Below, in pieces: positions 4,465 through 62,128 of a stretch of 64,000 nucleotides of DNA. The position numbers were made by a program, and so were the translations under genes. The DNA is from Candidatus Omnitrophota bacterium. Lineage in GTDB: Bacteria; Omnitrophota; Gorgyraeia; Gygaellales; Profunditerraquicolaceae. The stretch is from contig JAPLLZ010000029.1 of NCBI GenBank assembly GCA_026387265.1, positions 1,064-65,063 on the forward strand, read 5' to 3'. Below the pieces are notes generated by a model. It was not told where the DNA came from. It did not search any database and saw only the letters and a program-made list of their open reading frames with translations. How positions within the stretch are numbered: the stretch's first letter is position 1; the number at the start of each line of letters is the position of its first letter.

Positions 4465-5943
4465 ATGTTTAAATTAAATATTAATAAATTAAAATTTTTG
4501 TCCGCGCTAGCTAATCAAGAATTTGTTGGGATTAATTTTAGCGGGAATAATTTAAAAATTTCTCACGTTAAAGTCTCTCCAAGCAAGAAGGAAATAGTCA
4601 ATCTCTTAAATTTAGATGTTACTGGGCTTAGTGATCTTGATATTACTAAGAATATTCAGGTTGCTATTGGTGCGCTTAAAGGAAAAAAGATTGAAGTCAT
4701 TGATATCGTTCCGACGCAACTGGTGATTACAAAAAATATTGAAATTCCTTCTATTGAAAAGAAGGAGATTAAAGAGATCCTTAATTTGCAGGCAGGTAGG
4801 CATACTCCTTATTCACGGGAAGAAATAATTGTTGATTATGTTGAAATAGGCACTTATAAACATAGTTATACTAAGGTACTTTTAGTGATTGTTGCCCGCA
4901 GCGTCTTAAAGCGGCATTATGAAATATTAGACCGTGCAGGTTTTAGATTAAAGAGAGCGCTCTTAGCTTCTGAAGGGCTGGCCTTATCTGTTTCTAAAAC
5001 CTTAAGGCTGGAGATGGATAATGTCCCGGTTAATATATTGCATGTCGATGAAAACTTTACAGATTTTAGTATTATTCTTAAAAATAAGGTAATTTTTATC
5101 CGTTCTATCCCCATTGGTACCTTTCAGTTAAAGAATGAAAAAGAAGTTTATCAGCTAAAATTTGTAGATGAGCTTAAACGGTCTTTGGAGGCTTACTTGG
5201 GAGGGGATATTGAGATAAGTCCGAATATGTTAATTCTAACCGGGGCAGGTGAGGATCTTAAAGAAATTGAAAGCTTGTTGAATAAAACAATGCACCTGCC
5301 GGTAAAGATTTTGTCTTATGCCAGTATTTTTAACATTTCAGAGTTGGCTAAAGGAACGATATCTAAAGCTAAGCAGGTATCTTTTTTTGATGTTATTGCG
5401 CCGATTCTTAATTGCCAGGAGATGAAAATAGACCTTATCCCGGAAGAAGCCAGGGTACGCCGGTCTATCGAAGAGAGAGGTAAAGATCTGATTAAAACAG
5501 GTATTTTCATTTTAACCATTTTTATCGCTACCTTTTTTATACTGGCTAGTAAGATTTATTTTAAAGGTGCGCAGTTAAGTAAGCTCGATAGTAAGTATGC
5601 GGTAATTAACCAAGAAGCACAAAAACTAGAGAAAGATCTCTTGAAGGTCGGCTTAGTCAAGAATTATCTGGTTAATCGAGGCTATACTTTAGAGATTTTA
5701 ACGGAGTTGCATGGTTTGGTTTCTGAGGATATAGAGCTTAGCGAGATTCGTTATGACGCAGATAAATTTTCTGTAAAGGGAAGCGCGGATGCAATGAGTT
5801 CAGTTTTTTCTTTTGTTGACCGCATGGAAAAATCAAAATATTTTAAAGAGGTTAAAACCAGATATACCGCTAAGCGTAAAGATGGTTTAAGGGATTATAC
5901 AGATTTTGAAGTCATTGCATTAATGGAAAGGCCGCAGGATTGA
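4465..5943 (+). CDS. PilM-PilN fusion (GspL-equivalent assembly protein)
   Basis: 492 aa: N-terminal roughly 330-aa actin-like PilM-type domain, TM helix IFILTIFIATFFILASKIYF, then a PilN-like periplasmic domain. Confidence 0.7.
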   Translation: MFKLNINKLKFLSALANQEFVGINFSGNNLKISHVKVSPSKKEIVNLLNLDVTGLSDLDITKNIQVAIGALKGKKIEVIDIVPTQLVITKNIEIPSIEKKEIKEILNLQAGRHTPYSREEIIVDYVEIGTYKHSYTKVLLVIVARSVLKRHYEILDRAGFRLKRALLASEGLALSVSKTLRLEMDNVPVNILHVDENFTDFSIILKNKVIFIRSIPIGTFQLKNEKEVYQLKFVDELKRSLEAYLGGDIEISPNMLILTGAGEDLKEIESLLNKTMHLPVKILSYASIFNISELAKGTISKAKQVSFFDVIAPILNCQEMKIDLIPEEARVRRSIEERGKDLIKTGIFILTIFIATFFILASKIYFKGAQLSKLDSKYAVINQEAQKLEKDLLKVGLVKNYLVNRGYTLEILTELHGLVSEDIELSEIRYDADKFSVKGSADAMSSVFSFVDRMEKSKYFKEVKTRYTAKRKDGLRDYTDFEVIALMERPQD

Positions 5944-6509
5944 TGAAATTGCTTAATGTGCAGATGCTCCAAGTATTCTTGGGGCGTTTATCAAAAAAAG
6001 ATAGAACAATTTTCTATGTTATTGTTGCTATTGTTTCGTTATTAATACTGGACCGGGCGATTATTTCTCCCGTATTTTCAAAAATCTGCTCGTTAAATAA
6101 AGAAATTCAGGATAAACAGGCGACGATTAAAAAGAACCTGCGGATACTGACACAGAAGGACAAAATCCTGGCGCAGAGTTCTAAGTATAGTTCTTTTTTA
6201 GGTGATTCCCAAATGACTGAGGATGAGCAGGTAACTGCGGTTTTAAAAGAGCTGGAAAGCTTAGCAAGTAAAAGTTCAGTATATCTGATTGATATGAAGC
6301 CGGCCGGGGCTAAAGGATCAGGTTCTTCAAAAAAGATTTACGTAAACTTAAATTGCGAAGCTCAGATGGAACAATTGGTTGATTTTATGTATAATATGGA
6401 GAATTCCAGCAACCTGATTTCTATTGAAAAATATCAACTTACTCCTAAAGCAAAAGAATCAAGCGTGGCAAAATGCAGTATATCGGTGTATAAAGTAGTT
6501 GCGCTATAA
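5943..6509 (+). CDS. PilO/GspM-like bitopic assembly protein
   Basis: ATG 5943 overlaps the upstream stop (TGATG); N-terminal TM IFYVIVAIVSLLILDRAIISPVF, coiled-coil segment, small C-terminal domain; operon position after pilMN. Confidence 0.5.
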   Translation: MKLLNVQMLQVFLGRLSKKDRTIFYVIVAIVSLLILDRAIISPVFSKICSLNKEIQDKQATIKKNLRILTQKDKILAQSSKYSSFLGDSQMTEDEQVTAVLKELESLASKSSVYLIDMKPAGAKGSGSSKKIYVNLNCEAQMEQLVDFMYNMENSSNLISIEKYQLTPKAKESSVAKCSISVYKVVAL

Positions 6510-8112: not shown

Positions 8113-8140
8113 TATCCGCTAACGTTTCAGTGGCGGATAA
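8112..8140. repeat. CCGCC-type hairpin repeat, copy 1
   Basis: TTATCCGCTAACGTTTCAGTGGCGGATAA; its reverse complement ATCCGCCACTGAAACGTTAGCGGAT matches 26045-26071 (ATCCGCCACTGAAGCGTTGGCGGAT) at all but 2 positions. Confidence 0.6.
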
Positions 8141-12447: not shown

Positions 12448-12461
12448 ATTATAAAGGAACT

Positions 12462-12641
12462 TTCCGCCTCAGAAGCTATTTCAAAATTCTCTAGAATTTT
12501 GAAATATTCGGCGGAATAATCCTTACTCTTTTCATTCGTAAGGATTTCGCTAAACAAGAGCTAAGGGAGCTCAAATTCGCGGACACTCCAACAAGCTGGA
12601 GCTACAACTTACGTCGGCTGCGGCTTCCGTAAGTTGTCCGC
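12462..12641. repeat. Modular multi-hairpin repeat element, long copy (modules 1-4)
   Basis: Module 1 12462-12516 (TTCCGCC / TCAGAAGCT / 12-bp stem ATTTCAAAATTC / ATTC / GGCGGAA); module 2 12519-12545 (ATCCTTAC-N11-GTAAGGAT); module 3 12558-12572 (GAGCT-AAGGG-AGCTC); module 4 12579-12641 (GCGGACA ... ACAACTTACG-N14-CGTAAGTTGT ... TGTCCGC). Modules 1 and 4 recur at 40559-40674. Confidence 0.7.
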
Positions 12642-12663
12642 TCATTTAAGGAGGATTAATTCG

Positions 12664-16403: not shown

Positions 16404-17094
16404 AGAAATAATTAAAGTCAACTCGATTTGTAAGAGTTATCAGGATAACTTAACTAACCTGGAAGTATTAAAAAATATTAATTTTTCTGTTTTGGCGGGT
16501 GAATTCTTGGTAATTCAGGGGCCAAGCGGCGCAGGAAAGTCGACGCTTTTACATATTTTAGGCGGTTTGGATAATCCGACCCAAGGGAAAGTTTATTTTC
16601 AAGGAGCGGATATTTATGCCATAGATGAGAATAAGCGTTCTGCTTTGCGCAATGAGAAAATAGGTTTTGTTTTTCAGTTTTTTCATCTTTTGCCGGAGTT
16701 AAATGCTTTAGAGAATGTTTTGTTACCGGGAATTTTAAAATCCTGGTGGGATAGGAAAAAAAGCTTAGGCAAGGCGCTTGAACTTTTAGAAAGATTAGGA
16801 TTATCCTCCAGGTTAAAACATCGGCCGGGTGCTTTAAGCGGCGGAGAACAACAGAGAGTGGCGATTGCCCGGGCGTTAGTCAATTGTCCGCAGCTTTTAC
16901 TTTGTGATGAGCCTACGGGTAATTTAGATTCAGAGAATGGTAAAAATATCCTGCAGCTTTTAATTGAGCTTAACCGGGCTCAAAAGATTACCATTGTGAT
17001 GGTTACTCATGATAAAGATATTGCCTGTGGAGCCGGAAGAATTATTCATTTGAAGGATGGGGTTATTCTAGGAAATAATAATGATAAACACTAA
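16396..17094 (+). CDS. lolD: Lipoprotein-releasing ABC ATPase
   Basis: Walker A GPSGAGKST, signature LSGGEQQRVAIARAL, Walker B LLLCDEPTGNLD; overlaps lolE by 8 nt. Confidence 0.85.
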   Translation: MSEEIIKVNSICKSYQDNLTNLEVLKNINFSVLAGEFLVIQGPSGAGKSTLLHILGGLDNPTQGKVYFQGADIYAIDENKRSALRNEKIGFVFQFFHLLPELNALENVLLPGILKSWWDRKKSLGKALELLERLGLSSRLKHRPGALSGGEQQRVAIARALVNCPQLLLCDEPTGNLDSENGKNILQLLIELNRAQKITIVMVTHDKDIACGAGRIIHLKDGVILGNNNDKH

Positions 17095-17217
17095 ACCCGA
17101 AAAACGAAACTCTAAACAAACTCAAAATTCTAAACTCGAAACTCAAAACATTGGTTTAAAAATTTGAGTTTTGGATTTAGGATTTGTTTAGGATTTAGAG
17201 TTTAGTGTTTAGAGTTT
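17089..17217. repeat. Inverted heptamer-array element, copy 1
   Basis: Left arm of CNCTAAA/CTCGAAA-type heptamers (17089-17147), 15-nt centre, right arm of TTTAGRR/TTTGAG-type heptamers (17163-17217); begins in the last lolD codons, ends 4 nt before the ilvE SD. Confidence 0.7.
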
Positions 17218-17233
17218 ATTAAAGGAGGTAAGC

Positions 17234-26044: not shown

Positions 26045-26071
26045 AATCCGCCACTGAAGCGTTGGCGGATT
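26045..26071. repeat. CCGCC-type hairpin repeat, copy 2
   Basis: AATCCGCCA-CTGAAGCGT-TGGCGGATT; near-identical to the reverse complement of 8112-8140; preceded by tandem AGCAATTAAT x2. Confidence 0.6.
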
Positions 26072-26095
26072 CAATTCCGGCAAAAGAATTGTCGT

Positions 26096-26116
26096 TCCGC
26101 CATAAAACATGGCGGA
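26096..26116. repeat. 21-bp hairpin TCCGCCAT-AAAAC-ATGGCGGA (intergenic copy)
   Basis: Exact reverse complement of 36151-36171. Confidence 0.75.
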
Positions 26117-26117
26117 T

Positions 26118-28296: not shown

Positions 28297-28980
28297 ATGG
28301 TTTATCTGATTAACATTTTAATTATATTGCTGGCGATTGCAGTAATTAAACTGGTGTTAATTTCTATCTTTTTCTATGCTGATATTAGGGCGGCGCAAAA
28401 AAGAGATCCTGCGGCGAAAAGTTTCTTAGAGATAATTTTACTTTATCCCGGGCTGCACGCTTTAGTTTATTATCGGATTGCGCATTTATTCTATGGAATA
28501 AGGTTATTCTTTTTAGCGCGCCTGTTATCTCAGGCCGGTAGGTTTTTTACCGGTATTGAAATTCATCCGGGAGCTAAAATCGGTAAACGTTTTTTTATTG
28601 ATCATGGGCTAGGAGTAGTGATTGGAGAGACGGCGGTTGTGGGTGATGATGTCCTGCTTTATCAGGGATCTACCTTGGGTGGAACCGGTATTGTTCAGGG
28701 TAAGCGCCATCCTACGGTTGGTAATAATGTGGTTATTGGAGCCGGAGCCAAAGTTTTGGGCAACATTGTTATCGGAGATAATTCTTATATTGGAGCAAAC
28801 GCAGTAGTGGTGAAAGATGTTCCGCCGAATTCTACAGTAGTGGGTGTTCCCGGTAGGATTACAAAACAGGATGGTAAGAAGATGGATGTCAGCCTGGATC
28901 ATGCGCGTATACTTGATCCGATTATGCAGACGATTGAAGAACTGCAGGATAGAGTTAAAGAATTAGAAAAGAATAAGTAA
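28297..28980 (+). CDS. cysE: Serine O-acetyltransferase
   Basis: [21 protein letters not shown], hexapeptide-repeat C-domain. ATG 28297 has a strong SD, giving an unusual hydrophobic roughly 25-aa N-terminal extension; GTG 28354 would give a canonical-length protein. Confidence 0.85.
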
Positions 28981-29113
28981 ACTCTAAACACGAAACCCTA
29001 AACTCTAAACAAACTCGAAACACTAAATCCGAATTTAAGAACTTACTTCTGAGTAATATTTGAGTTTCGGATTTAGGATTTGTTTAGGATTTCGAGTTTC
29101 GAATTTAGGATTT
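28979..29113. repeat. Inverted heptamer-array element, copy 2
   Basis: Left arm AAACTCTAAACACGAAACCCTAAACTCTAAACAAACTCGAAACACTAAATCCGAA, variable centre, right arm TTTGAGTTTCGGATTTAGGATTTGTTTAGGATTTCGAGTTTCGAATTTAGGATTT; fills the cysE-cysS spacer. Confidence 0.7.
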
Positions 29114-29120
29114 AATAATT

Positions 29121-35158: not shown

Positions 35159-36294
35159 GCGCTCAAATTTCTATAGTTAAGTGTGACAATTATGAGCCAG
35201 CTAAGGTCCAGCAAGCCATTCGGGATGCGCTTGGCCTTTTAGGCGGGATAACTAACTTCATTAAGCCGAATTCCAGGGTGTTGGTTAAGCCAAATCTTTT
35301 AATGTCTAAAGGCCCGGAATGTGGTATTACTACGCATCCGCAGATAGTTAGGGCAATTATCCAAATACTGAAAGAAATAAATTGTAAAGTTGTTGTTGGT
35401 GATGGGCCGAGCGTTTGGGGCGGATATATAGAAAATGTGGATGAGGTTTATGGAGTAACTGGAATTAAAAAAGTCTGTCAGGATGAGGATGTGCGCCTGG
35501 TAAATTTTGATAAACGCCGGATGCGCGATAAATTTCCTCTTACCGCACAGCTAGATGAGTGTGATCATTTAATTAATCTGCCTAAATTTAAAACTCACGA
35601 ACTTACTTTAATTACCGGGGCAATAAAAAATCTTTTTGGATTGGTCTCTGGCACCTATAAAACCGAACTGCATAAGAATTATTTTGCCCCGGCAGAGTTT
35701 GCTAAAATCTTGGTGGATATCTATCAGGAGGCAAAACCGGATTTGACGATTATTGACGGAATATTGGCGATGGAAGGCGATGGCCCGGCGACTAGCGGAA
35801 TACCCCGGGAACTTGGCCTTTTGCTTTGTGGGGCTGATTGTGTGGCGTTAGATACAATTGTCGCCAAAATAATGGGGATTAAACAAGAGGTTTTGACGAC
35901 TAAAGAAGCTGCTTTACGTAATTTAGGGCAGGCCTGGTTGGATAAAATAAAGATAGAGGGAGAGAATATCGATCGGTTAAATATCCGTCCGTTTATTCTA
36001 CCGAAAAATTCAGTTAAACTAACTACTTTACCTCCGATTATAACAAAAATATTTAAGTCTCTGGTTAGATATTATCCTTATTCATTGCGTTTAAAATGTA
36101 CGCGTTGCGGGCATTGTGTTAAGGTTTGTCCAAAGCAGTGCATTAGATTATCCGCCATGTTTTATGGCGGAAAGAAAAGTGGAATACAGATTAACTATCA
36201 TCAATGTATTGCTTGTTTTTGCTGTCAGGAAGCTTGTCCGGAAGCAGCTATAGGGGTAAGGAAGAGCCTTTTAGCTAAATTAATAGGGTTATAG
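35155..36294 (+). CDS. DUF362 domain protein with C-terminal 2x[4Fe-4S] ferredoxin domain
   Basis: DUF362-like core; CTRCGHCVKVCP and CIACFCCQEACP cluster motifs; carries the 21-bp hairpin in frame between the two clusters. Confidence 0.75.
   Translation: MSAQISIVKCDNYEPAKVQQAIRDALGLLGGITNFIKPNSRVLVKPNLLMSKGPECGITTHPQIVRAIIQILKEINCKVVVGDGPSVWGGYIENVDEVYGVTGIKKVCQDEDVRLVNFDKRRMRDKFPLTAQLDECDHLINLPKFKTHELTLITGAIKNLFGLVSGTYKTELHKNYFAPAEFAKILVDIYQEAKPDLTIIDGILAMEGDGPATSGIPRELGLLLCGADCVALDTIVAKIMGIKQEVLTTKEAALRNLGQAWLDKIKIEGENIDRLNIRPFILPKNSVKLTTLPPIITKIFKSLVRYYPYSLRLKCTRCGHCVKVCPKQCIRLSAMFYGGKKSGIQINYHQCIACFCCQEACPEAAIGVRKSLLAKLIGL
36151..36171. repeat. 21-bp hairpin TCCGCCAT-GTTTT-ATGGCGGA inside a CDS (in frame, SAMFYGG)
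   Basis: Exact reverse complement of the intergenic 26096-26116; starts on a codon boundary of ORF 35155-36294 and is exactly 7 codons long. Confidence 0.75.
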
Positions 36295-39451: not shown

Positions 39452-40551
39452 GCTATCGGCCCACCTGGGCGGAAGTCAACCTAAATTGTCTGGAGCATAA
39501 TTTTAAAGAGGTTAAGTCTCTTCTGCGTCCTGAAATTAAAGTTTTGGTTACCGTAAAAGCCGATGCTTATGGGCATGGTTTAATTCCGGTAGCCAGGAAA
39601 TTAGTTGCCTGTGGTTTGGGTTATTTAGGGGTTGCCTCTATAGATGAAGGGATAAAATTAAGAAGAGCCGGAATTAAAAAACCGATTTTACTTTTAGGGT
39701 TAGTTCTTAAAGAAGATATCAGCCCGCTTTTTACTTATCAGCTTATTCCTGCAGTTTGCGACCTTCAGTTAGCCTGTGCTATTAGTGTTAAAGCTCAAAT
39801 GCTTAGGCAGGTTATGCCGGTGCATATCAAAATCGATACCGGGATGGGCAGGATCGGGGTTTTGCCCAAGGAAGCCTTTAAATTAGTAACGGATATTCAC
39901 AAACTAAAGAATATACAGATCCAGGGGATTTTTACGCATTTTCCTCTTGCGGATTCCGACCGTAAATTTACTGCCAGGCAAATCAGTATATTTGATAAAT
40001 TAGTTGTGGATTTAAAAAATAGCGGGATAGGGATTCCTCTGGTGCATGCTGCCAATAGTATTGGTTTAATTAACCATCGTAACAGCCATTTTACGATGGT
40101 TAGGCCGGGATTGGTAATTTATGGTTTGTATCCTAAGAAAAATTTAGGCTTAAAATTGAAGCCGGTGTTGAGTCTTAAAACCCGCGTAGTTTTCATTAAA
40201 CAAGTTGGCTCGCATGTCGGTATAAGTTATGGGTTAACTTATGTAACGGCGCGGCCAACGCGGATTGTTACTTTGCCTATCGGTTATGGTGATGGTTACC
40301 CGCGCAATCTTTCCAATTTAGCCTGGCTTTTGATTGGTGGCCGGAGGTTTAGGGTTAGTGGTAGAGTTTGTATGGATCAAATTATGGTGGATGTCGGTAA
40401 TTTTAAGCCGAAAATCGGAGATGAGGTAGTCTTAATTGGTAAACAGGGTAAGCAACAAATTACCGCGGAAGAACTTGCGGAGTTATCCGGTACAATTTCC
40501 TATGAGATTGTTTGTGGTTTAGGGAGTAGAATTCCTAGGATTTATAGATAA
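39430..40551 (+). CDS. alr: Alanine racemase
   Basis: PLP-lysine motif VTVKADAYGHG, C-terminal beta domain (VCMDQIMVDV). Confidence 0.9.
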   Translation: MPNKNAIGYRPTWAEVNLNCLEHNFKEVKSLLRPEIKVLVTVKADAYGHGLIPVARKLVACGLGYLGVASIDEGIKLRRAGIKKPILLLGLVLKEDISPLFTYQLIPAVCDLQLACAISVKAQMLRQVMPVHIKIDTGMGRIGVLPKEAFKLVTDIHKLKNIQIQGIFTHFPLADSDRKFTARQISIFDKLVVDLKNSGIGIPLVHAANSIGLINHRNSHFTMVRPGLVIYGLYPKKNLGLKLKPVLSLKTRVVFIKQVGSHVGISYGLTYVTARPTRIVTLPIGYGDGYPRNLSNLAWLLIGGRRFRVSGRVCMDQIMVDVGNFKPKIGDEVVLIGKQGKQQITAEELAELSGTISYEIVCGLGSRIPRIYR

Positions 40552-40558
40552 CGAAAGC

Positions 40559-40674
40559 TTCGCCTCAGAATCTACACCAAAATTATCTGGAATTTTGGTG
40601 TATTCGGCGAAATTAATACGCAGACGGCCTAACGCCTACGACTTACGTCGCTTCCGCTTCCGTAAGTTGTCTGC
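40559..40674. repeat. Modular multi-hairpin repeat element, short copy (modules 1 and 4)
   Basis: Module 1 40559-40611 (TTCGCC / TCAGAATCT / stem ACACCAAAATT / ATTC / GGCGAA); module 4 40620-40674 (GCAGAC ... ACTTACG-N13-CGTAAGT ... GTCTGC); fills the spacer between convergent alr and lptG. Confidence 0.7.
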
Positions 40675-40677
40675 TTA

Positions 40678-41775
40678 TTAAGGTAGTTTTGAAATAAGAT
40701 AGAGGCTGCTGGATAGAATAATAATGTGGCTTAATGAAGCAGCCAGAATAGGCGTGATTAAACCGGATTTTCCTATAGCCAGGCAGATCGCATCCAGGAC
40801 ATAATAGAGAAAGCCCACGATAATTGAAACTCCGATAGAAGACATCCCCGTTGCGCGTTTACGCATCAGAAGAGAAAATGGTATTCCCAAAAGGATAATG
40901 ATGATACTGGTAAATGGTGAAGTGAAACGCTGATAAAGGTCGACCTTTAAATTCCTAATTACCGTAGTGGCTCCGCTTTTAGAGAGTATCCAGATATAGT
41001 CCTGCATTTGGCGGATATTCATTTGTTCCGGTTTTTGCCTTAAAGAGGCAAGATTTTCCGGGGTTTCCGGAATACTCATGATTTCTTCTTCCAAATAATT
41101 TGGCTCGTCAATTACCTGTCCATTGCTATCAAATTTATAAGTGATACTTTGCGAAAATCTCCACAGTCCATCTTGGTAGACTCCCCTAGTAGCGATGATT
41201 TTTTTAGTCAAATTCTGTTTTTCATCTTGCTCCAAAATGGTGATCCCTTCCATGGTTTTTGCAGCTGGTAAAAACCTGCTGATAAAAAATAATCTATTCC
41301 TCATACCGTAGAGCGTAAGGTTGGTGATTGCTTCATTTTTTTTAGGCTTACCTTTTGTGCCTTCTTCAATCTGGATTTTAATTTTTTGATTTTCGACAGA
41401 AGAGACAGGGACAAATCGGTCATTTACCCAGAATACTGCTAAGCTAATTAGTAAGCCAAAGATTAGGGCATTGCGGGCGATTTCAAATATACTTAAACCG
41501 CTTGAACGCATAGCAATAATTTCATTATTGTGGTTTAGTTTTCCGAAAGTATAAACCGTACTCAAGAGACAGGCAAAAGGGGAGACCTGCACAAACATAA
41601 TCGGCAGATATGAAACATAATAGCGTATCAGCAGCGCTAAGGTGGCTTGATGTTTTAATACTTCATCTAGATTAGAAAGTAGGTCGATAACGATATAAAG
41701 AAATAGAAATACAAAAATACAAGAAAAGAAAATATAAATAATTGATTTTAGGATATAGCGGTCTAAGATGCGCAT
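40678..41775 (-). CDS. lptG: LPS export ABC permease LptG
   Basis: LptF/LptG family: 6 TM with periplasmic insert; second of an overlapping pair. Confidence 0.8.
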   Translation of the reverse strand: MRILDRYILKSIIYIFFSCIFVFLFLYIVIDLLSNLDEVLKHQATLALLIRYYVSYLPIMFVQVSPFACLLSTVYTFGKLNHNNEIIAMRSSGLSIFEIARNALIFGLLISLAVFWVNDRFVPVSSVENQKIKIQIEEGTKGKPKKNEAITNLTLYGMRNRLFFISRFLPAAKTMEGITILEQDEKQNLTKKIIATRGVYQDGLWRFSQSITYKFDSNGQVIDEPNYLEEEIMSIPETPENLASLRQKPEQMNIRQMQDYIWILSKSGATTVIRNLKVDLYQRFTSPFTSIIIILLGIPFSLLMRKRATGMSSIGVSIIVGFLYYVLDAICLAIGKSGLITPILAASLSHIIILSSSLYLISKLP

Positions 41776-45524: not shown

Positions 45525-46898
45525 ATGGAAAAGATTTATTTAGCCTCCAATTCTAAGGCCAGAAAGAAATTATTAGAAAAATTTGGCCTGAAGTTTAAAA
45601 TCCTACCTTCTAAAGTTAAAGAGCAAACTCAACGCGGTAATTTATCATATCCTCAACTTGTGCAGAAGAACGCCCGTAAAAAAGCAGAAGAAGCAGCAGC
45701 TCGAGTAACTGGTGGAATTATTATTGCCGCCGATACTATTTGTGTGCAGAATGGTAAGATCTTCGGTAAACCGAAGAATATGGCAGCTGCCCGCCGGATG
45801 CTTCAACAATTATCCAGTAGGCCGCAATGGCTATACACCGGTTTGGCACTAATTAAAAAAACTAAAAGTAAACAAAAACTCCTGCTAGATTATGAAAGAG
45901 CAAGAGTTTATATGGATAAATTAAGCCCGGCGCAGATTGATAATTATTTTAAACAGGTTTCTCCTTTAGATAAAGCCGGTAGTTTTGATATCCAGGGCAA
46001 AGGGGCATTTTTTATTAAGCGAATCGATGGGTGTTTTTATAATGTAGTCGGACTGCCTTTGAGAAAATTATATCTGATGCTTAAAAAGTTTGATGTAAAA
46101 ATTCTTTCGTTTTTTTTAACGGCCACCAGTTGTTTATTAACTGCCGTGGTTTTGTCTGGCTGCTCTACGGAATATAATCTTGCTACTAAACAGGAGGAGA
46201 AATATTATTATAGTACGGATAAGGAAGTCCAGATGGGCCAGTCAATTAACCGTAGGGTAGAAAAAGAATTAAAATTTTCCGCAGATCCATTACAGCAAAA
46301 ACGCGTGGAGGATATTGGCAAAAAGGTAGCTGCCGTCAGCGATAGAAAAGAGATTGATTATTATTTCCGGGTTTTAGATGATGATGAGGTTAACGCTGTA
46401 TCTTTACCCGGAGGGTATGTTTATATTAACAGTGGATTGTTGGATAAAGTGGCTAATGATGATGAGTTGGCCTGTGTTTTAGCACACGAGGTAGGCCATA
46501 TTGTTGCCCGGCATAGCATAAAGAAACTTCAGGCGATGCAGAGTTATTCTATTTTAAGAGTGTTAGTGGCTGTAGCTCCTGGTGCTTCAGAGGTAGGCAG
46601 CGCCGCAGATGCTGCTTTTACTCAATTTTTGCTTGGCTATAACCGCGAAGATGAGCTATTAGCAGATCAACTGGGTGCCCGTTATGCTAAATTGGCTGGT
46701 TATGATCCACATAGCATGATTACTTTTTTAATTAAGTTGCAGGATATCAACCGTAGGATGCCGCTTAGAGAACAGTCGTATTATAAGACCCACCCTTATG
46801 TTCCTGATCGGATTAGAGTAGTTAAGCAGGAACTGGGGGAGCAGATTGATTTTGGGGACTACATCAATATTGAACAAGAAAGCCACCAGCCCCGTTAG
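45525..46898 (+). CDS. Maf nucleotide pyrophosphatase domain fused in frame to an M48 metalloprotease lipoprotein
   Basis: Residues 1-190 Maf-like (IYLASNSKARKKLLE, AGSFDIQG, YNVVGLPL). An internal ATG 46077 opens the lipoprotein signal MLKKFDVKILSFFLTATSCLLTAVVLSGC, followed by an M48 domain (HEVGHIVARH, THPYVPDRI). No stop codon lies between the two parts. Confidence 0.75.
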   Translation: MEKIYLASNSKARKKLLEKFGLKFKILPSKVKEQTQRGNLSYPQLVQKNARKKAEEAAARVTGGIIIAADTICVQNGKIFGKPKNMAAARRMLQQLSSRPQWLYTGLALIKKTKSKQKLLLDYERARVYMDKLSPAQIDNYFKQVSPLDKAGSFDIQGKGAFFIKRIDGCFYNVVGLPLRKLYLMLKKFDVKILSFFLTATSCLLTAVVLSGCSTEYNLATKQEEKYYYSTDKEVQMGQSINRRVEKELKFSADPLQQKRVEDIGKKVAAVSDRKEIDYYFRVLDDDEVNAVSLPGGYVYINSGLLDKVANDDELACVLAHEVGHIVARHSIKKLQAMQSYSILRVLVAVAPGASEVGSAADAAFTQFLLGYNREDELLADQLGARYAKLAGYDPHSMITFLIKLQDINRRMPLREQSYYKTHPYVPDRIRVVKQELGEQIDFGDYINIEQESHQPR

Positions 46899-46954
46899 AG
46901 ACAGGCTGCCGAAGGCAGCCGTTAGTTACCCTAGGTGTCTTGTCTCTAACGGGG
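46890..46954. repeat. 64-65-bp palindromic element (CCCCGTTAGAG...CTCTAACGGGG), intergenic copy
   Basis: 14-bp terminal inverted repeats CCCCGTTAGAGACA / TGTCTCTAACGGGG, internal hairpin GGCTGCC-GAA-GGCAGCC. Contains the upstream stop TAG (46896-46898) and ends on the G of the downstream GTG start. Confidence 0.75.
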
Positions 46955-48069
46955 TGAATAGAATAATTGCTCTCTTGGTAATTTTTTTGTTAACCTTTTG
47001 CCGTTTACCGGCAGGAGAGATTTCCGATAAGAAATATATGAAAAATAATGTGGCGCATTTAGACAAGGTAAATTTTGATAACCCTTTTGGGGTTTTGGAA
47101 TTTTTGCATTGGAATCATTCTTGGAATAATTATAAATATTCCAGCCAACGCGATTTGGAAGAAGTGGTTTCCCTTATGCGTGATGCTGGTGTGGGTTGGG
47201 TAAGGTGGGATTTTTTATGGTCAGATATCGAAGCTCAGGAGGGGAAGTTTGACTTTACTAAATATGACAATATTGTTAAGGTGCTTAAAAATAATGATAT
47301 TCATATTTTAGGTGTTTTACATTACAGTACAAATTGGGCTTCTTCCTGCGGCGAATGGAATTGTCCGCCTGAAGATAACCAGAAATTCGTAAATTACGCA
47401 AGCAAAGTTATCCAGCGCTATAAGGATCAAGTGAAGTATTGGGAGGTTTGGAATGAACCGGATTCAGCTATCTACTGGAAAAAGCAGGATAGTCTTAAGT
47501 CTTATTGTATTCTATTGAAAGAGGTTTATTTGGCAGCTAAAAAAATAGACCCTGATTGTAAGATTCTAAATGGCGGCATTGCCAATGGTTTAGTTAGTAT
47601 TAATCATTTGTATGATAATGGAGCAAAAGATTATTTTGATATATTAAACCTGCATTTTTTTGAAAGCCCTTTACATGGAAAAAATGGTATAAAGGCGGTA
47701 ATTAGTTATCCTAATCTTGCTTATAAAATAATGGTGCGTAATGGTGATGCGCATAAGAAAATCTGGATAACGGAGATTGGCTGCCCGGGGGTAGAATCCG
47801 GATTAAAGACAGATAATTGGTGGATGGGAGAGAATCCTGATGAGCGCCAACAGGCTGAATGGGTAAAAGAAGTTTATGGCGAATTGTTAAAAAATCAGCA
47901 GGTGGAAAAAATTTTCTGGGCCTTTTTCCGTGATACCAAGGAACATTGGGGTAATGGTGTTGATTATTTTTGTTTAGTGCGTTGGGATTATTCCACCAAG
48001 CCTTCCTTTGAAGCTTATCAAAAGCGTTATCAGGAGTGGAAAAAGAATAAAGCCGTAAGGCCTAAGTGA
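46954..48069 (+). CDS. Secreted clan GH-A (TIM-barrel) glycoside hydrolase-like protein
   Basis: GTG 46954 gives the signal peptide (M)NRIIALLVIFLLTFCRLPAG; YWEVWNEPD (acid/base Glu) and KIWITEIG (nucleophile Glu) signatures; the track start 46846 reads through the repeat. Confidence 0.65.
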   Translation: MNRIIALLVIFLLTFCRLPAGEISDKKYMKNNVAHLDKVNFDNPFGVLEFLHWNHSWNNYKYSSQRDLEEVVSLMRDAGVGWVRWDFLWSDIEAQEGKFDFTKYDNIVKVLKNNDIHILGVLHYSTNWASSCGEWNCPPEDNQKFVNYASKVIQRYKDQVKYWEVWNEPDSAIYWKKQDSLKSYCILLKEVYLAAKKIDPDCKILNGGIANGLVSINHLYDNGAKDYFDILNLHFFESPLHGKNGIKAVISYPNLAYKIMVRNGDAHKKIWITEIGCPGVESGLKTDNWWMGENPDERQQAEWVKEVYGELLKNQQVEKIFWAFFRDTKEHWGNGVDYFCLVRWDYSTKPSFEAYQKRYQEWKKNKAVRPK

Positions 48070-57492: not shown

Positions 57493-57573
57493 TGCGGGAG
57501 GAGGGAGTTGAACCCTCAAGGGTTACCCCACACGCTTCTGAGACGTGCGCGTATGCCATTCCGCCACTCCCGC
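57493..57573 (-). tRNA. tRNA-Leu (anticodon CAG)
   Basis: Hand-folded: acceptor GCGGGAG/CTCCCGC, D arm GCG-GAATGGCATA-CGC, anticodon arm CACGT-CTCAGAA-GCGTG, 13-nt variable arm, T arm GAGGG-TTCAACT-CCCTC, discriminator A; CCA not encoded. Confidence 0.9.
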
Positions 57574-59289: not shown

Positions 59290-59710
59290 GGGGGTGAAAG
59301 GGTTCGACTTAAGATATGTCGCTTAAGAGCAGCATGCCGCGGATGTAAGGTTAGCCGCGTTAACAATCCTTGCACAATTCAAACGCAAACACAAAAACAC
59401 CAGTGTTCACAAACCGATTGGCAGCGTTACCGGGTTTTCAGCCGGTAGCATTTCCAGCTGGTTGCGTACCAGTCTTAGCGTTTAATTAAACGCTAAGCCT
59501 CTAGCTGTCCTGCCTACGGGATAGATTAGAGCTCAAGTAGGATAGTCCCGGCGGTTAGCCTTCCAAACCGGGGCAAAATCGAAAAGGCTGCATCTTGCAA
59601 ATCCTGCCGGGTAGGAGTTGCAAGGTTAAGAATAAATTACCAGGCTAAGCATGTAGCGGTTTTTAGGTGATTACTTAAGGACGGCGGTCCGATTCCGCCC
59701 ACCTCCACCA
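59290..59710 (+). ncRNA. ssrA: tmRNA (SsrA)
   Basis: 5' GGGGGTGAAAGGGTTCGAC; 3' tRNA-like end GGACGGCGGTCCGATTCCGCCCACCTCCACCA. The acceptor pairs GGGGGTG/CACCTCC with the G3-U pair. Tag ORF 59385-59489 has its stop in the loop of the CTTAGCGTTT/AAACGCTAAG hairpin. Confidence 0.9.
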
Positions 59711-60901: not shown

Positions 60902-61689
60902 GTTCAATTGGCGTTTTTGATTCTGGAGTAGGCGGGCTTACAGTAGCCAGAGAAATAATCCGTCAACTACCCAATGAAAATATAGTTTACTTTGGTGATA
61001 CTGCTCGCGTTCCTTATGGGATTAAGTCGCCTCAAACCGTAATCCGTTTTTCTATTGAAAATATTTTATTTTTATTAAAGCACGATGTTAAATTAATTTG
61101 CGTTGCTTGTAACACTGCATCTAGTTTTGCGCTTCCGGTAATCCGGAATAATTTCCGTGTTCCGATTATCGGCGTAATTACCCCTGGAGCCAGAGAAGCA
61201 GTTTATGCTTCACAAAATAAGCGTATTGGAGTAATCGGGACCAAGGGAACGATTAAGAGCCGTACATATGAAACAGAAATTAAACAGCTTGATCCTAAAG
61301 TTAAAGTAACGGCTGTGGCTTGTCCTTTATTTGTTCCTTTTGTGGAGGAAGGCTGGCTTTCCGGAGAAGTAGTATTAAACGTGGCCAGGCAATATTTAAA
61401 ACCGCTGCGCCAGGCTGGTGTGGATACAGTAATCTTAGGCTGTACACATTATCCTTTGCTTAGGCCGGTAATTCAGGAAGTTTTGGGCAAAAATGTTATT
61501 TTGATTGATTCTGCTAAGCAGGTAGCTTTTGAAATAAAAAAGATTCTGACTAGTGAAGATTTATTTAATCGCGGCAAGGGCGGCAAACATAAATTTTACG
61601 TCAGTGATAATCCTGAATGGTTTAGTTCTCTAGCTCATCGGTTTATGGGGACTAAATTGATGAACGTAAAGAAGGTGGAAAATGTATAG
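60898..61689 (+). CDS. murI: Glutamate racemase
   Basis: IGVFDSGVGGLTV, catalytic Cys motifs VACNTAS and LGCTHYP. Confidence 0.92.
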   Translation: MSSIGVFDSGVGGLTVAREIIRQLPNENIVYFGDTARVPYGIKSPQTVIRFSIENILFLLKHDVKLICVACNTASSFALPVIRNNFRVPIIGVITPGAREAVYASQNKRIGVIGTKGTIKSRTYETEIKQLDPKVKVTAVACPLFVPFVEEGWLSGEVVLNVARQYLKPLRQAGVDTVILGCTHYPLLRPVIQEVLGKNVILIDSAKQVAFEIKKILTSEDLFNRGKGGKHKFYVSDNPEWFSSLAHRFMGTKLMNVKKVENV

Positions 61690-62128
61690 CTTAAAAGTAC
61701 AGGGGACTTTTAGTTCTGCGCATAATTTAAGAGGCTATAAAGGTAAATGTGAAGATTTGCATGGGCATAATTGGGTAGTGGAGATAGTGGTTAAATCTAA
61801 GAGGCTAGATAATATCGGCATGGTTTTGGATTTTAAATTCCTGAAGAAAAAATTAAATGTTTGTTTAGAGCAGATGGATCATAAGTATCTTAATCAACTG
61901 TCTTATTTTAAAAAAGTAAACCCCGTTAGAGGCAGGGCGCCGAAGGTAACCGACGGCTGCCTGCGGCAGCCTGCCTCTAACGGGGTAAATCCAACCTCTG
62001 AAAATATTGCTAAATATGTTTATGATCAACTTAAATCTTCGATTCCTTTATTAAATTGTGTAACGGTCTGGGAAAATAGTACAAGCAGCGCTACCTATGA
62101 ACCTAGCCCTTCCTCGGGTAGGGATTAA
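61682..62128 (+). CDS. queD: 6-carboxy-5,6,7,8-tetrahydropterin synthase QueD, carrying a 23-codon repeat-derived insertion
   Basis: FSSAHNLRGYKGKCEDLHGHNW, MDHKYLN, NPTSENIAKY motifs; 148 aa versus the roughly 120 aa I recall as typical. Confidence 0.85.
   Translation: MYSLKVQGTFSSAHNLRGYKGKCEDLHGHNWVVEIVVKSKRLDNIGMVLDFKFLKKKLNVCLEQMDHKYLNQLSYFKKVNPVRGRAPKVTDGCLRQPASNGVNPTSENIAKYVYDQLKSSIPLLNCVTVWENSTSSATYEPSPSSGRD
61921..61984. repeat. 64-bp palindromic element (CCCCGTTAGAG...CTCTAACGGGG), copy inside queD
   Basis: Termini CCCCGTTAGAGGCAGG / CCTGCCTCTAACGGGG; the internal part (GGTAACCGACGGCTGCCTGCGGCAGCC) matches the reverse complement of the internal part of 46890-46954; flanked by GTAAAYCC 69 bp apart. 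Confidence 0.8.

Follow-up and report, generated by a model that had tools for sequence, protein, structure and literature searches.

A palindrome of 65 nucleotides (nt), which separates a Maf/peptidase M48 fusion gene from a glycoside hydrolase gene in a Candidatus Omnitrophota bacterium, is very likely a complete 65-bp copy of a MITE, a miniature, non-autonomous DNA transposon, with inverted repeats of 13-14 bp at its ends, two 7-bp hairpins inside, and a duplicated 4-bp target site that takes the form T-N-N-A. The palindrome lies in a stretch of 64,000 nt (assembly GCA_026387265.1, contig JAPLLZ010000029.1, positions 1,064 to 65,063 of the forward strand), which we call here the window and from whose first letter all positions are counted. 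At this locus, a transposon supplies both the stop codon of one gene and the start codon of the next one, which explains the odd structure of the junction. The element shows the traits of MITEs, namely terminal repeats, a target duplication demonstrated by filled and empty sites, a small non-coding size, and multiple dispersed copies.

Copy 1 of the element (46890-46954; no strand is assigned to it or to its parts) opens with the left terminal inverted repeat CCCCGTTAGAGACA (46890-46903) and closes with the right one, TGTCTCTAACGGGG (46941-46954), which are perfect reverse complements over 14 bp. The terminal stem encloses a first inner hairpin, GGCTGCC-GAA-GGCAGCC (46904-46920), whose 7-bp stem and 3-nt loop are indicated by both folding and covariation, and, after a 3-nt linker, a second one, AGTTACC-CTA-GGTGTCT (46924-46940), which is partly degraded by one mismatch and one G-T pair. 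On the plus strand, the TAG at 46896-46898, within the left repeat, ends the open reading frame (ORF) of Maf/M48, and the final G of the right repeat is the first base of GTG 46954-46956, the probable start of the glycoside hydrolase. An earlier reading of these letters (hereafter, the original prediction) had described the perfect 14-bp stem, the first inner hairpin, the stop codon in the left terminus, and the shared G in frame with the hydrolase, and all of them are borne out by the window sequence and its list of ORFs. The predicted RNA fold of 46880-46970 has a free energy of -41.7 kcal/mol (z = -5.4; none of 200 shuffled sequences was as stable), and both the G and the U of GUG 46954 are paired in it, within the terminal stem. 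The palindrome is not a product of chance, since at least 119 contigs of public genomes have the same termini, whereas our own estimate for the 22-base pattern is of about two chance matches in the collection. In the window itself, the 14-mer terminus (with at most one mismatch) is found at two places only, as both arms of each of two copies, the second one lying within queD; where one copy has GAGACA/TGTCTC in its terminal stem and the other has GAGGCA/TGCCTC, the change is compensated on the opposite arm.

The insertion can be read directly from relatives with and without the element. In five element-free relatives (L120, L121, L122, L172, and L173), the stop codon of Maf/M48 and the ATG of the hydrolase overlap by 8 nt, with an ancestral sequence of cATGAATAG or cATGAATAA, the empty junction being ...gag act cATGAATAAaata in the first three and ...ccc cATGAATAGaata in the last two. 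Scanning metagenomes with the left half of the subtype present in the window gave 47 complete copies, two of which, in contigs L134 and L138, are at exactly this junction (...CCCCA-TGAA-[65 nt]-TGAA-TAGAATAATT). The filled L134 and the empty L172 are 97.6% identical over 1,596 shared nt, and the filled L138 and the empty L173 are 93.9% identical over 1,596 nt; at the junction, the sole difference within each pair is a precise indel of 69 nt, comprising the element and an extra TGAA. Such pairs are the classical signature of transposition. The copy in L134 differs from copy 1 at four positions, all of them in the second inner hairpin or in the linker preceding it.

In the window, the right target-site duplication is an intact TGAA (46955-46958, plus strand), as seen in the sequence and in the junction alignments, and the left one, once TGAA according to the same alignments, has decayed to CCAG (46886-46889, plus strand). 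The ancestral ATGAA is preserved in L134, L138, and L124, reads ATGAG in L123, an intermediate state, and has become ACCAG in the window, where two of the three substitutions abolish the old ATG and two of the three fall at third-codon positions of M48. A window junction that was never duplicated, with an ancestral ...CAG/TGA and a GTGA overlap, was also considered and is ruled out, given that the flank in the window exceeds those of the element-free relatives by exactly 4 nt, as a duplication demands.

The consequences for the upstream gene (45525-46898, plus strand; 457 aa) are plain. In the frame of M48, the insertion reads GAA (now CAG) CCC CGT TAG, and hence the native C-terminus is kept and followed by Pro-Arg and an element-borne stop. 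Because the element-free orthologues overlap by 8 nt with the next gene and end in ...THE or ...PHE before their stop, without Pro-Arg, it is the element that provides the spacer, the stop codon now used, and the two final residues of M48. This comparison agrees with the original prediction in that the palindrome forms the whole spacer, since there is none in its absence. The same prediction had assigned the last three residues, QPR, to the element; this stands for the proline and the arginine and fails for the glutamine, whose CAG codon is the decayed host target and which is a glutamate in the relatives. M48 ends in the same way in L134, L138, and L123, with TAG, and in L124, where the stop is TAA, and 11 further long ORFs in the census described below stop on the same TAG of the element. 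Regarding the gene itself, a single ORF of 448-457 aa joins Maf (PF02545) to M48 (PF01435) in the window, L120, L121, L122, and L172, an arrangement conserved in relatives, whose orthologues of 448-454 aa carry both domains; a lipoprotein-like signal is located between the two domains. One relative encodes a protein (P0042, 567 aa) with Maf fused directly to the hydrolase and the M48 domain missing.

The downstream gene (46954-48069, plus strand; 371 aa from GTG, with an N-terminal segment resembling a signal peptide) was affected at its very first base. The element-free relatives, against which the original prediction would have the N-terminus compared, begin with ATG at the codon occupied by GTG 46954, so that the window reads GTG AAT AGA... 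where they read ATG AAT AGA/AAA.... GTG replaces ATG because the duplicated target is TGAA, not ATGAA, and the preceding base is therefore the last G of the element. The old ATG, in turn, stayed in frame with the hydrolase because 69 nt is a multiple of three and the element has an open frame; in L134 and L138, it would yield MNPVRDRLPKAAVSHLRCLVSNGV-NRIICLL.... Decayed copies at this junction, of 38 nt in L123 and 44 nt in L124 (and also in P0024, judged from its peptide), are all of length 3n+2, and the frame from the old ATG is thereby retained.

In the window, the frame upstream of the hydrolase is open through the element from TTG 46846, where the ORF list places the start, and reads as the peptide SPVRDRLPKAAVSYPRCLVSNGVN, just as quoted in the original prediction; a product read through from an upstream start would contain SPVRDRLPKAAV.... 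This TTG is in frame with the hydrolase and lies 4 nt downstream of GGGGAG, which speaks for it and against GTG 46954, where there is no Shine-Dalgarno sequence at a useful distance. We nonetheless favour GTG as the probable start, because the GGGGAG also serves as M48 coding sequence (Leu-Gly-Glu) and because the conserved signal-peptide-like segment begins at the GTG codon in all orthologues. The hydrolase protein at NCBI (P0001, 371 aa) also starts at GTG 46954. In many relatives, the frame upstream of the start (46846-46953 in the window) is open across the 3' end of M48; gene callers often pick an upstream TTG or ATG (MKKLILAI..SILNK..), and the annotated N-termini are inconsistent, with proteins of 325 to 405 aa. 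This disagreement between gene callers is one of the annotation hazards at this locus.

The element entered the TGAA inside the ancestral 8-nt overlap of M48 stop and hydrolase start, and three of its properties made this insertion harmless: a stop codon reached through CCC CGT TAG, a terminal G that rebuilds a GTG start, and an open frame of 69 nt in total. The window lineage would later have lost the old ATG (ATGAA to ACCAG), with initiation moving to GTG 46954. With this codon buried in a hairpin of -42 kcal/mol and no usable Shine-Dalgarno sequence before it, translation of the hydrolase probably still depends on ribosomes finishing M48: those reaching the TAG in the 5' arm would melt the stem hiding GTG, and the ancestral translational coupling would in this way be preserved.

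The second copy of the window (61921-61985, 65 nt, no strand assigned), whose terminal repeats are likewise perfect over 14 bp, is inverted, with 85% identity to the reverse complement of copy 1, and lies in frame within queD (61682-62128, plus strand; 6-carboxytetrahydropterin synthase, PF01242). It is flanked by TAAA on both sides (61917-61920 and 61986-61989, plus strand), and the empty site, AAAAAG-TAAA-TCC, was taken from L174, a relative at 84% identity, whose queD differs from that of the window (83.6% identical) by a precise 69-nt indel at this very place. L174 is located on the same contig as L138, and that genome therefore has the junction filled and the queD site empty. An exact 41-mer scan of the metagenome collection for an empty queD allele of the same species gave no match. 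The insertion (65 + 4 = 69 nt) equals 23 codons: copy 2 entered a TAAA at a place that encodes a surface loop of QueD, and its translation adds 23 residues to the protein, the loop NPVRGRAPKVTDGCLRQPASNGV. Peptides such as NPVRGRAPK, VTDGCLR, and QPASNGVNPTSENIAK would be expected from this QueD. These are 23 foreign residues next to the active-site motifs of QueD, a further hazard for annotation. The original prediction had noticed here a peptide parallel to that of the junction, attributing its PVR and SNGV to the palindromic termini. Both observations are correct; the queD ORF holds NPVRGRAPKVTDGCLRQPASNGVN, and the pattern PVR...SNGV recurs in dozens of host proteins. In the AlphaFold model, the QueD fold is predicted to be kept, helices 74-79 and 106-118 being connected by the insert, which is modelled as a coil with low confidence, and no Pfam match was obtained for the element-encoded insert peptides.

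Most of the 120 closest QueD orthologues have 118 aa and the empty site ...YFKK/VNPTSENIAKY. Others carry, at the same point, inserts of 14, 16, 17, 19, or 21-23 residues, all of them beginning with (N/S)PVR and ending with SNGV; the insert of P0166 is in the opposite orientation, and its peptide resembles that of copy 1 of the window. Seven orthologues (P0146, P0164, P0183, P0184, P0198, P0203, and P0238) have only a 3-residue relic (NGV, GGV, or NGA) at the MITE site, which looks like the remainder of an element that was almost entirely deleted, possibly through a microhomology (AAC) that the left junction shares with the right terminus. A single ancient insertion into queD would be at odds with a neighbour-joining tree of 115 core columns, which scatters the carriers (15 changes for 22 carriers), this tree being too weak to decide the matter. 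A second kind of in-frame insert (SAAGG, SAAGGSASGG, SAKGACLPVRQGSASGG, or longer) is found in the QueD of relatives three residues upstream of the MITE site, and could consist of translated TCCGCC...GGCGGA palindromes, that is, a second frame-compatible family.

The extent of the family was explored with the pattern CCCCGTTAGAG-N(28-58)-CTCTAACGGGG, scanned in one genome per GTDB species. It matched at least 119 genome contigs and, counting the window, yielded 125 elements of 50-80 nt among the matches listed, with variants spanning 29-114 nt. The search demanded the first 11 nt, which are therefore the same in each of the 125 elements; beyond them, positions 12 and 13 of the terminus differ among elements yet remain complementary, and the perfect terminal repeat reaches 13 bp in 85 of the 125 listed elements and at least 12 bp in 122 of them. 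The ends can be written as CCCCGTTAGAG-R-N..., and an autonomous partner would be expected between CCCCGTTAGAGRN ... NYCTCTAACGGGG. An identical 4-nt direct repeat, mostly T-N-N-A, flanks 78 of the 125 listed elements, the commonest being TTTA (15), TTGA (11), TAAA (11), and TCAA (10), with TTAA found once; the flank logo of all 125 reads T(82%)-N-N-A(80%)-C(42%), with the C being weak. The interiors, by contrast with these ends, fall into 87 unrelated clusters, and those of the 53- and 59-nt subtypes are unstructured and purine-rich, only the termini being universal.

All carriers are metagenome-assembled genomes (MAGs), comprising, among the matches listed, about 65 Patescibacteria, 20 Omnitrophota, 20 Planctomycetota, and 4 Nitrospirota, with single carriers in Elusimicrobia, Cloacimonadota, Ratteibacteria, and Desulfobacterales, thus spanning at least six phylum-level groups. 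Carriage by phages was considered and rejected, the pattern being present in just one of 2.9 million viral contigs. The 65-nt subtype of the window occurs as 47 complete copies in metagenome contigs, 35 of them with a perfect duplication and 22 of the contigs coming from one sample; many are near-identical, at different loci and with different duplications, which is recent activity.

Several minor observations concern the arrangement of these copies. One Jorgensenbacteria MAG has five copies on two contigs (L004 and L029), where adjacent or tandem 80-nt copies stand with few bases between them (L004 2942-3105; L029 7-223), which suggests either insertion of one element beside another or local amplification. 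Minimal hairpins of 29-30 nt, consisting of the terminal repeats and a short loop, are found in L094 (~5284-5312) and L102 (3312-3341), and a 114-nt copy in L113 (~4931-5044), with TCAA on both sides, has slightly different termini (CCCCGTTAGAAGC...GCTTCTAGCGGGG). Type IV pilus genes recur beside the elements (PilB in nine loci, and also PilM, PilC, and T2SSK; loci L004, L009, L018, L029, L042, L045, L046, and others), an association that may just mirror their general abundance in the carrier phyla; in L045, the open frame of PilB starts inside the element (5877-5955).

The lengths of the elements are far from random. A length of 3n+2 is found in 89 of the 125 listed elements (p = 6e-18), and the bias survives clustering (57 of the 87 interior clusters, p = 9e-10); together with a 4-nt duplication, this length makes each insertion a multiple of three. 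A stop-free frame extending at least 120 nt on both sides surrounds 37 of the 125 listed elements, 36 of which are 3n+2, and 17 of the 47 metagenome copies are likewise inside long open frames. One frame of the termini leads to TAG or TAA, whereas the remaining two are read as PVR...SNGV (26 cases) or PLE...LTG (16 cases, including antisense shadows of one and the same element). The avoidance of stop codons in the interiors is modest, with 2.80 open frames of 4 compared with 2.44 +/- 0.10 in shuffled sequences. The in-frame hosts include class II FBP aldolase, GcvT, YchF, Sua5/TsaC, PyrD (dihydroorotate dehydrogenase), a RecD-like helicase, Wzy-type ligases, and QueD, and in several host enzymes the insert splits a Pfam domain.

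Insertions inside essential enzymes, some of them across a Pfam domain, together with a stable helix that brings both flanks close to each other, could be explained if the element were removed after transcription or translation, as a mini-intron or in an intein-like manner, leaving host proteins without extra residues. This is extremely improbable. Splicing would leave unexplained the 3n+2 bias, the avoidance of stops, and the preservation of frame by 36 of 37 intragenic copies; decayed copies of other lengths (38 and 44 nt at the junction, 16-23 residues in QueD) are still in frame, there are no matches to ribozymes or introns, and 14-28 residues are far too few for an intein.

The 65-nt subtype has a defined layout, in which the 14-bp terminal stem encloses two 7-bp hairpins, each with a loop of 3 nt and joined by a GAC/GTC linker, and is predicted to fold as a three-way junction, alike on both strands. 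In an alignment of 15 sequences of this subtype (A1), 94.2% of the cells are paired, a share that falls to 36-46% if the partners are shifted by sliding; both sides have changed in 15 pairs, wobble pairs are few, and double-change cells number 61 against 18.8 in shuffles (none of 500 reaching the observed value). The hairpins are maintained by compensatory change.

A small GC-rich palindrome whose hairpins are compensated on both strands, with few wobble pairs and no DDE transposase found, also recalls REPs (repetitive extragenic palindromes) and REPINs, or elements of the IS200/IS605 type, which would be moved as single-stranded hairpins by RAYT or TnpA (HUH/Y1) enzymes. REPs are single stem-loops of 20-40 bp with an unpaired GTAG or CGTC tag at one end and no duplication, which often form inverted dimers and are associated with a RAYT gene, and they also occur within genes (PMC3733652). 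The elements described here share with them their small size, their GC-rich palindromic nature, their occasional intragenic location, and their occurrence in several phyla, including Planctomycetes. However, they have 65 nt, three helices, symmetrical ends without any GTAG or CGTC tag, and no RAYT among the ORFs near them; they are found as precise filled and empty pairs, with a real 4-nt duplication that varies within one subtype (TAAA, TGAA, TTTA, TTCA, CTGG, CGGG...), whereas Y1 transposition leaves no duplication and uses a fixed flanking tetranucleotide. We thus consider such an origin very unlikely.

The strong and significant fold, placed exactly between two genes, might alternatively be a locally evolved RNA element, such as a terminator, an attenuator, a riboswitch-like hairpin, or a small RNA, rather than mobile DNA. 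The stem is nevertheless followed by TGAATAGAATAATT, without a T-run, and nothing resembling a terminator was found in 46600-47200; no Rfam family reaches its gathering score on the element, a tmRNA and one tRNA being the only matches in the whole window, and permissive Rfam scans of both copies return miRNA-hairpin models only, at 13-28 bits compared with thresholds of 45-130. A search for promoters also gave nothing meaningful. Moreover, the second copy is inside a coding sequence and in the opposite orientation, and hundreds of copies with target duplications are scattered over unrelated loci and phyla, with filled and empty pairs, all of which makes a local RNA element hardly credible.

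The sequences GTTAGAG and CTCTAAC of the termini resemble GTTRRRY and RYYYAAC, which we take to be the core sites of attC, and an integron attC-like site, or another site for site-specific recombination, would on this basis come to mind. Yet the order is reversed (GTT...AAC instead of AAC...GTT), with GTT and AAC on the outside of the stem, the copies carry target duplications and lie in housekeeping genes rather than at cassette boundaries, and there is no integrase nearby; the idea is next to inconceivable.

Returning to the MITE, some observations weigh against it. The left duplication of the window has three of its four bases changed while the element is nearly intact, which is a mild anomaly. 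The element at the junction is identical at 59-63 of its 65 nt among the window, L134, and L138 (91-97%), and the flanks of about 1.4 kb, mostly coding, are just 76-79% identical, an excess of similarity that would count against a single, old, and neutral insertion. Termini of 11 nt that are identical across phyla are unusual for MITEs, though here this identity was required by the search. Finally, neither the window nor the 119 + 46 fetched loci yielded an autonomous element or a transposase with these termini.

A single old neutral insertion is insufficient for an element more alike than its flanks, and either reinsertion at a hotspot, or constraint or conversion combined with precise excision, is needed. 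Both possibilities fit: near-identical source copies may have entered the same TGAA independently, this hotspot being perhaps merely one of the few sites where an insertion does no harm, or one old insertion may have been kept by selection or conversion and cleanly excised many times. The same two readings apply to the queD site, and clean empty sites are expected alike from sites that were never filled and from seamless excision. For each filled lineage, the nearest relative sampled lacks the element (window-L120 0.81, L134-L172 0.98, and L138-L173 0.93).

Constraint on the sequence would be the natural outcome if the junction copy had been co-opted, with its hairpin kept as a device that couples or throttles M48 and hydrolase, or as a site of mRNA processing or stability, a role that would be compatible with a MITE origin. 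In line with this, the paired G and U of the start codon belong to a structure whose 5' arm holds the upstream stop, the element is far more similar between lineages than the flanks are and is nearly intact in the window despite the decayed left duplication, and the decayed copies of L123 and L124 keep the position of the stop and the frame. However, the emptiness of each nearest relative, with its simple 8-nt overlap, makes the element dispensable, copies exist in both orientations, inside ORFs and between genes, and one source copy that had inserted independently, and recently, in several lineages would account for the high similarity just as well. Altogether, we regard co-option as unlikely.

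As for the mobility of the MITE itself, the elements would be moved in trans by a cut-and-paste transposase of the DDE type, whose staggered 4-bp cut and preference for CCC...GGG ends would make it piggyBac/IS1380-like or IS5-like. The search for such an enzyme covered contig fragments of the carrier genomes, with pattern scans of spans up to 600 nt. Pairs of termini at 130-6000 nt with matching duplications in the fetched loci revealed no autonomous element; among the candidates, L025 5281..7376 is a degenerate 50-nt copy and a chance match flanking an ORF similar to threonyl-tRNA synthetase, L062 has TolC-like and HlyD-like genes, and L069 is a segmental duplication. Solitary termini in the fetched loci are all decayed or variant short copies, and a metagenome scan with the left end only returned complete 65- or 68-nt copies and no longer element. 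The ORF families recurring in the 119 loci are housekeeping ones (PilB, PilM, PilC, ABC transporters, PGK, tRNA synthetases, and TsaD), with no transposase among them, and a Pfam scan of 137 ORFs from the 46 further loci found no transposase family.

The IS1380 family comprises the bacterial relatives of piggyBac. With these elements, the ones described here share a 4-bp duplication with outer T and A, 5'-CCC...GGG-3' ends, and a 13-bp repeat. PiggyBac itself targets TTAA, has a left end beginning with CCCTAGAAAGATA, and is excised without a footprint (PMC5861402). In contrast, the target here is T-N-N-A, TTAA accounts for just 1 of 78 duplications, and no piggyBac/IS1380-like transposase was found in the loci searched; the resemblance is a lead, not a result. 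The conserved 13-bp ends provide a handle for finding the transposase.

Among the systems already described, the closest in behaviour are the Rickettsia palindromic elements (RPE; Ogata et al. 2000), short palindromes that lie in frame in functional genes of Rickettsia, add an apparently tolerated peptide to their products, and have become the textbook case of selfish DNA within protein genes (as summarised in PMC10969869 and PMC3733652). RPE-1 has about 100-150 bp, the others are CGTC-tagged REP-like units, and all are restricted to Rickettsia (PMC10969869, PMC3733652). The elements of this study are equally short, palindromic, non-coding, and in frame inside functional protein genes, but they have 50-80 bp, symmetrical 13-bp repeats, and no CGTC tag, they occur in at least six phylum-level groups, and they follow the 3n+2 rule with a 4-bp T-N-N-A duplication, a regular duplication being absent from the cited descriptions of RPE. 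They behave like RPE without being RPE, from which they are set apart by their description in terms of size, ends, and hosts.

Classical bacterial MITEs (Correia/NEMIS, ERIC, RUP, Nezha, and others) are mostly intergenic, usually with 70-300 bp and 15-30-bp repeats, specific to a species or genus, and usually tied to a parent insertion sequence (IS) (PMC10969869). Inverted repeats, target duplication, lack of an ORF, dispersed copies, hairpin transcripts, and effects on the expression of neighbouring genes are common to them and to the present elements, which differ in having the same termini across phyla, interchangeable interiors, about a third (~30%) of intragenic in-frame copies, and no known parent IS. 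The structure is that of an ordinary MITE, the exceptions being the very small size, the constant ends across phyla, the interchangeable interiors, and the 3n+2 rule, and the behaviour has its closest precedent in RPE. In the openly searchable full text (subscription-only literature being outside this scope), we found neither the terminal motif in a relevant context nor any link of MITEs with Omnitrophota, Patescibacteria, Saccharibacteria, or Planctomycetes, and the family is apparently undescribed.

It is conceivable, even though we would put it at somewhat less than an even chance, that these elements form an undescribed pan-phylum superfamily of ultra-small, "coding-compatible" transposons. 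Its members would have invariant termini of 11-13 bp (CCCCGTTAGAG...), interchangeable interiors, and lengths shaped by the 3n+2 rule, with one frame leading to an immediate stop and two being open; with essential genes and gene boundaries as their habitat, they would colonise the gene-dense and streamlined genomes of Patescibacteria, Omnitrophota, and Planctomycetota, repeatedly at the same sites (the queD loop and the M48/hydrolase overlap), perhaps being seamlessly removed by a piggyBac-like enzyme. If this were true, a major source of the loop insertions and of the N- and C-terminal variation in these phyla would have been overlooked. The colonisation of genes by in-frame palindromes has been documented mainly for Rickettsia, and here it is seen in at least six uncultivated phylum-level groups, with a signature of 4-bp duplication, 3n+2 length, and filled and empty alleles at the population level. 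These observations bear on how selfish DNA persists where intergenic space is almost nil, on the relative weight of repeated hits and clean excision, and on the share of the loop insertions of candidate phyla that has such an origin.

Other repeats were observed in the window. A second type of small palindrome, ATCCGCC...GGCGGAT, of about 25-29 nt, is present at 8114-8138, 26046-26070, 26089-26117, and 36150-36178. Two palindromes of about 140 nt (17085-17222 and 28978-29118), 78-86% alike, are made of heptamer-like units, with TAAACTC... paired with ...GAGTTTA, and stand directly upstream of ATG 17234 and ATG 29121. The upstream regions 12454-12653 and 40550-40686 (~200 nt), which share 77-81% identity in two blocks, may represent a leader or regulatory element common to two genes, the first of them ending in AAGGAG just before ATG 12664. 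The tmRNA gene (59290-59710, 165 bits) and the tRNA gene (57493-57573), both on the minus strand, are ordinary.

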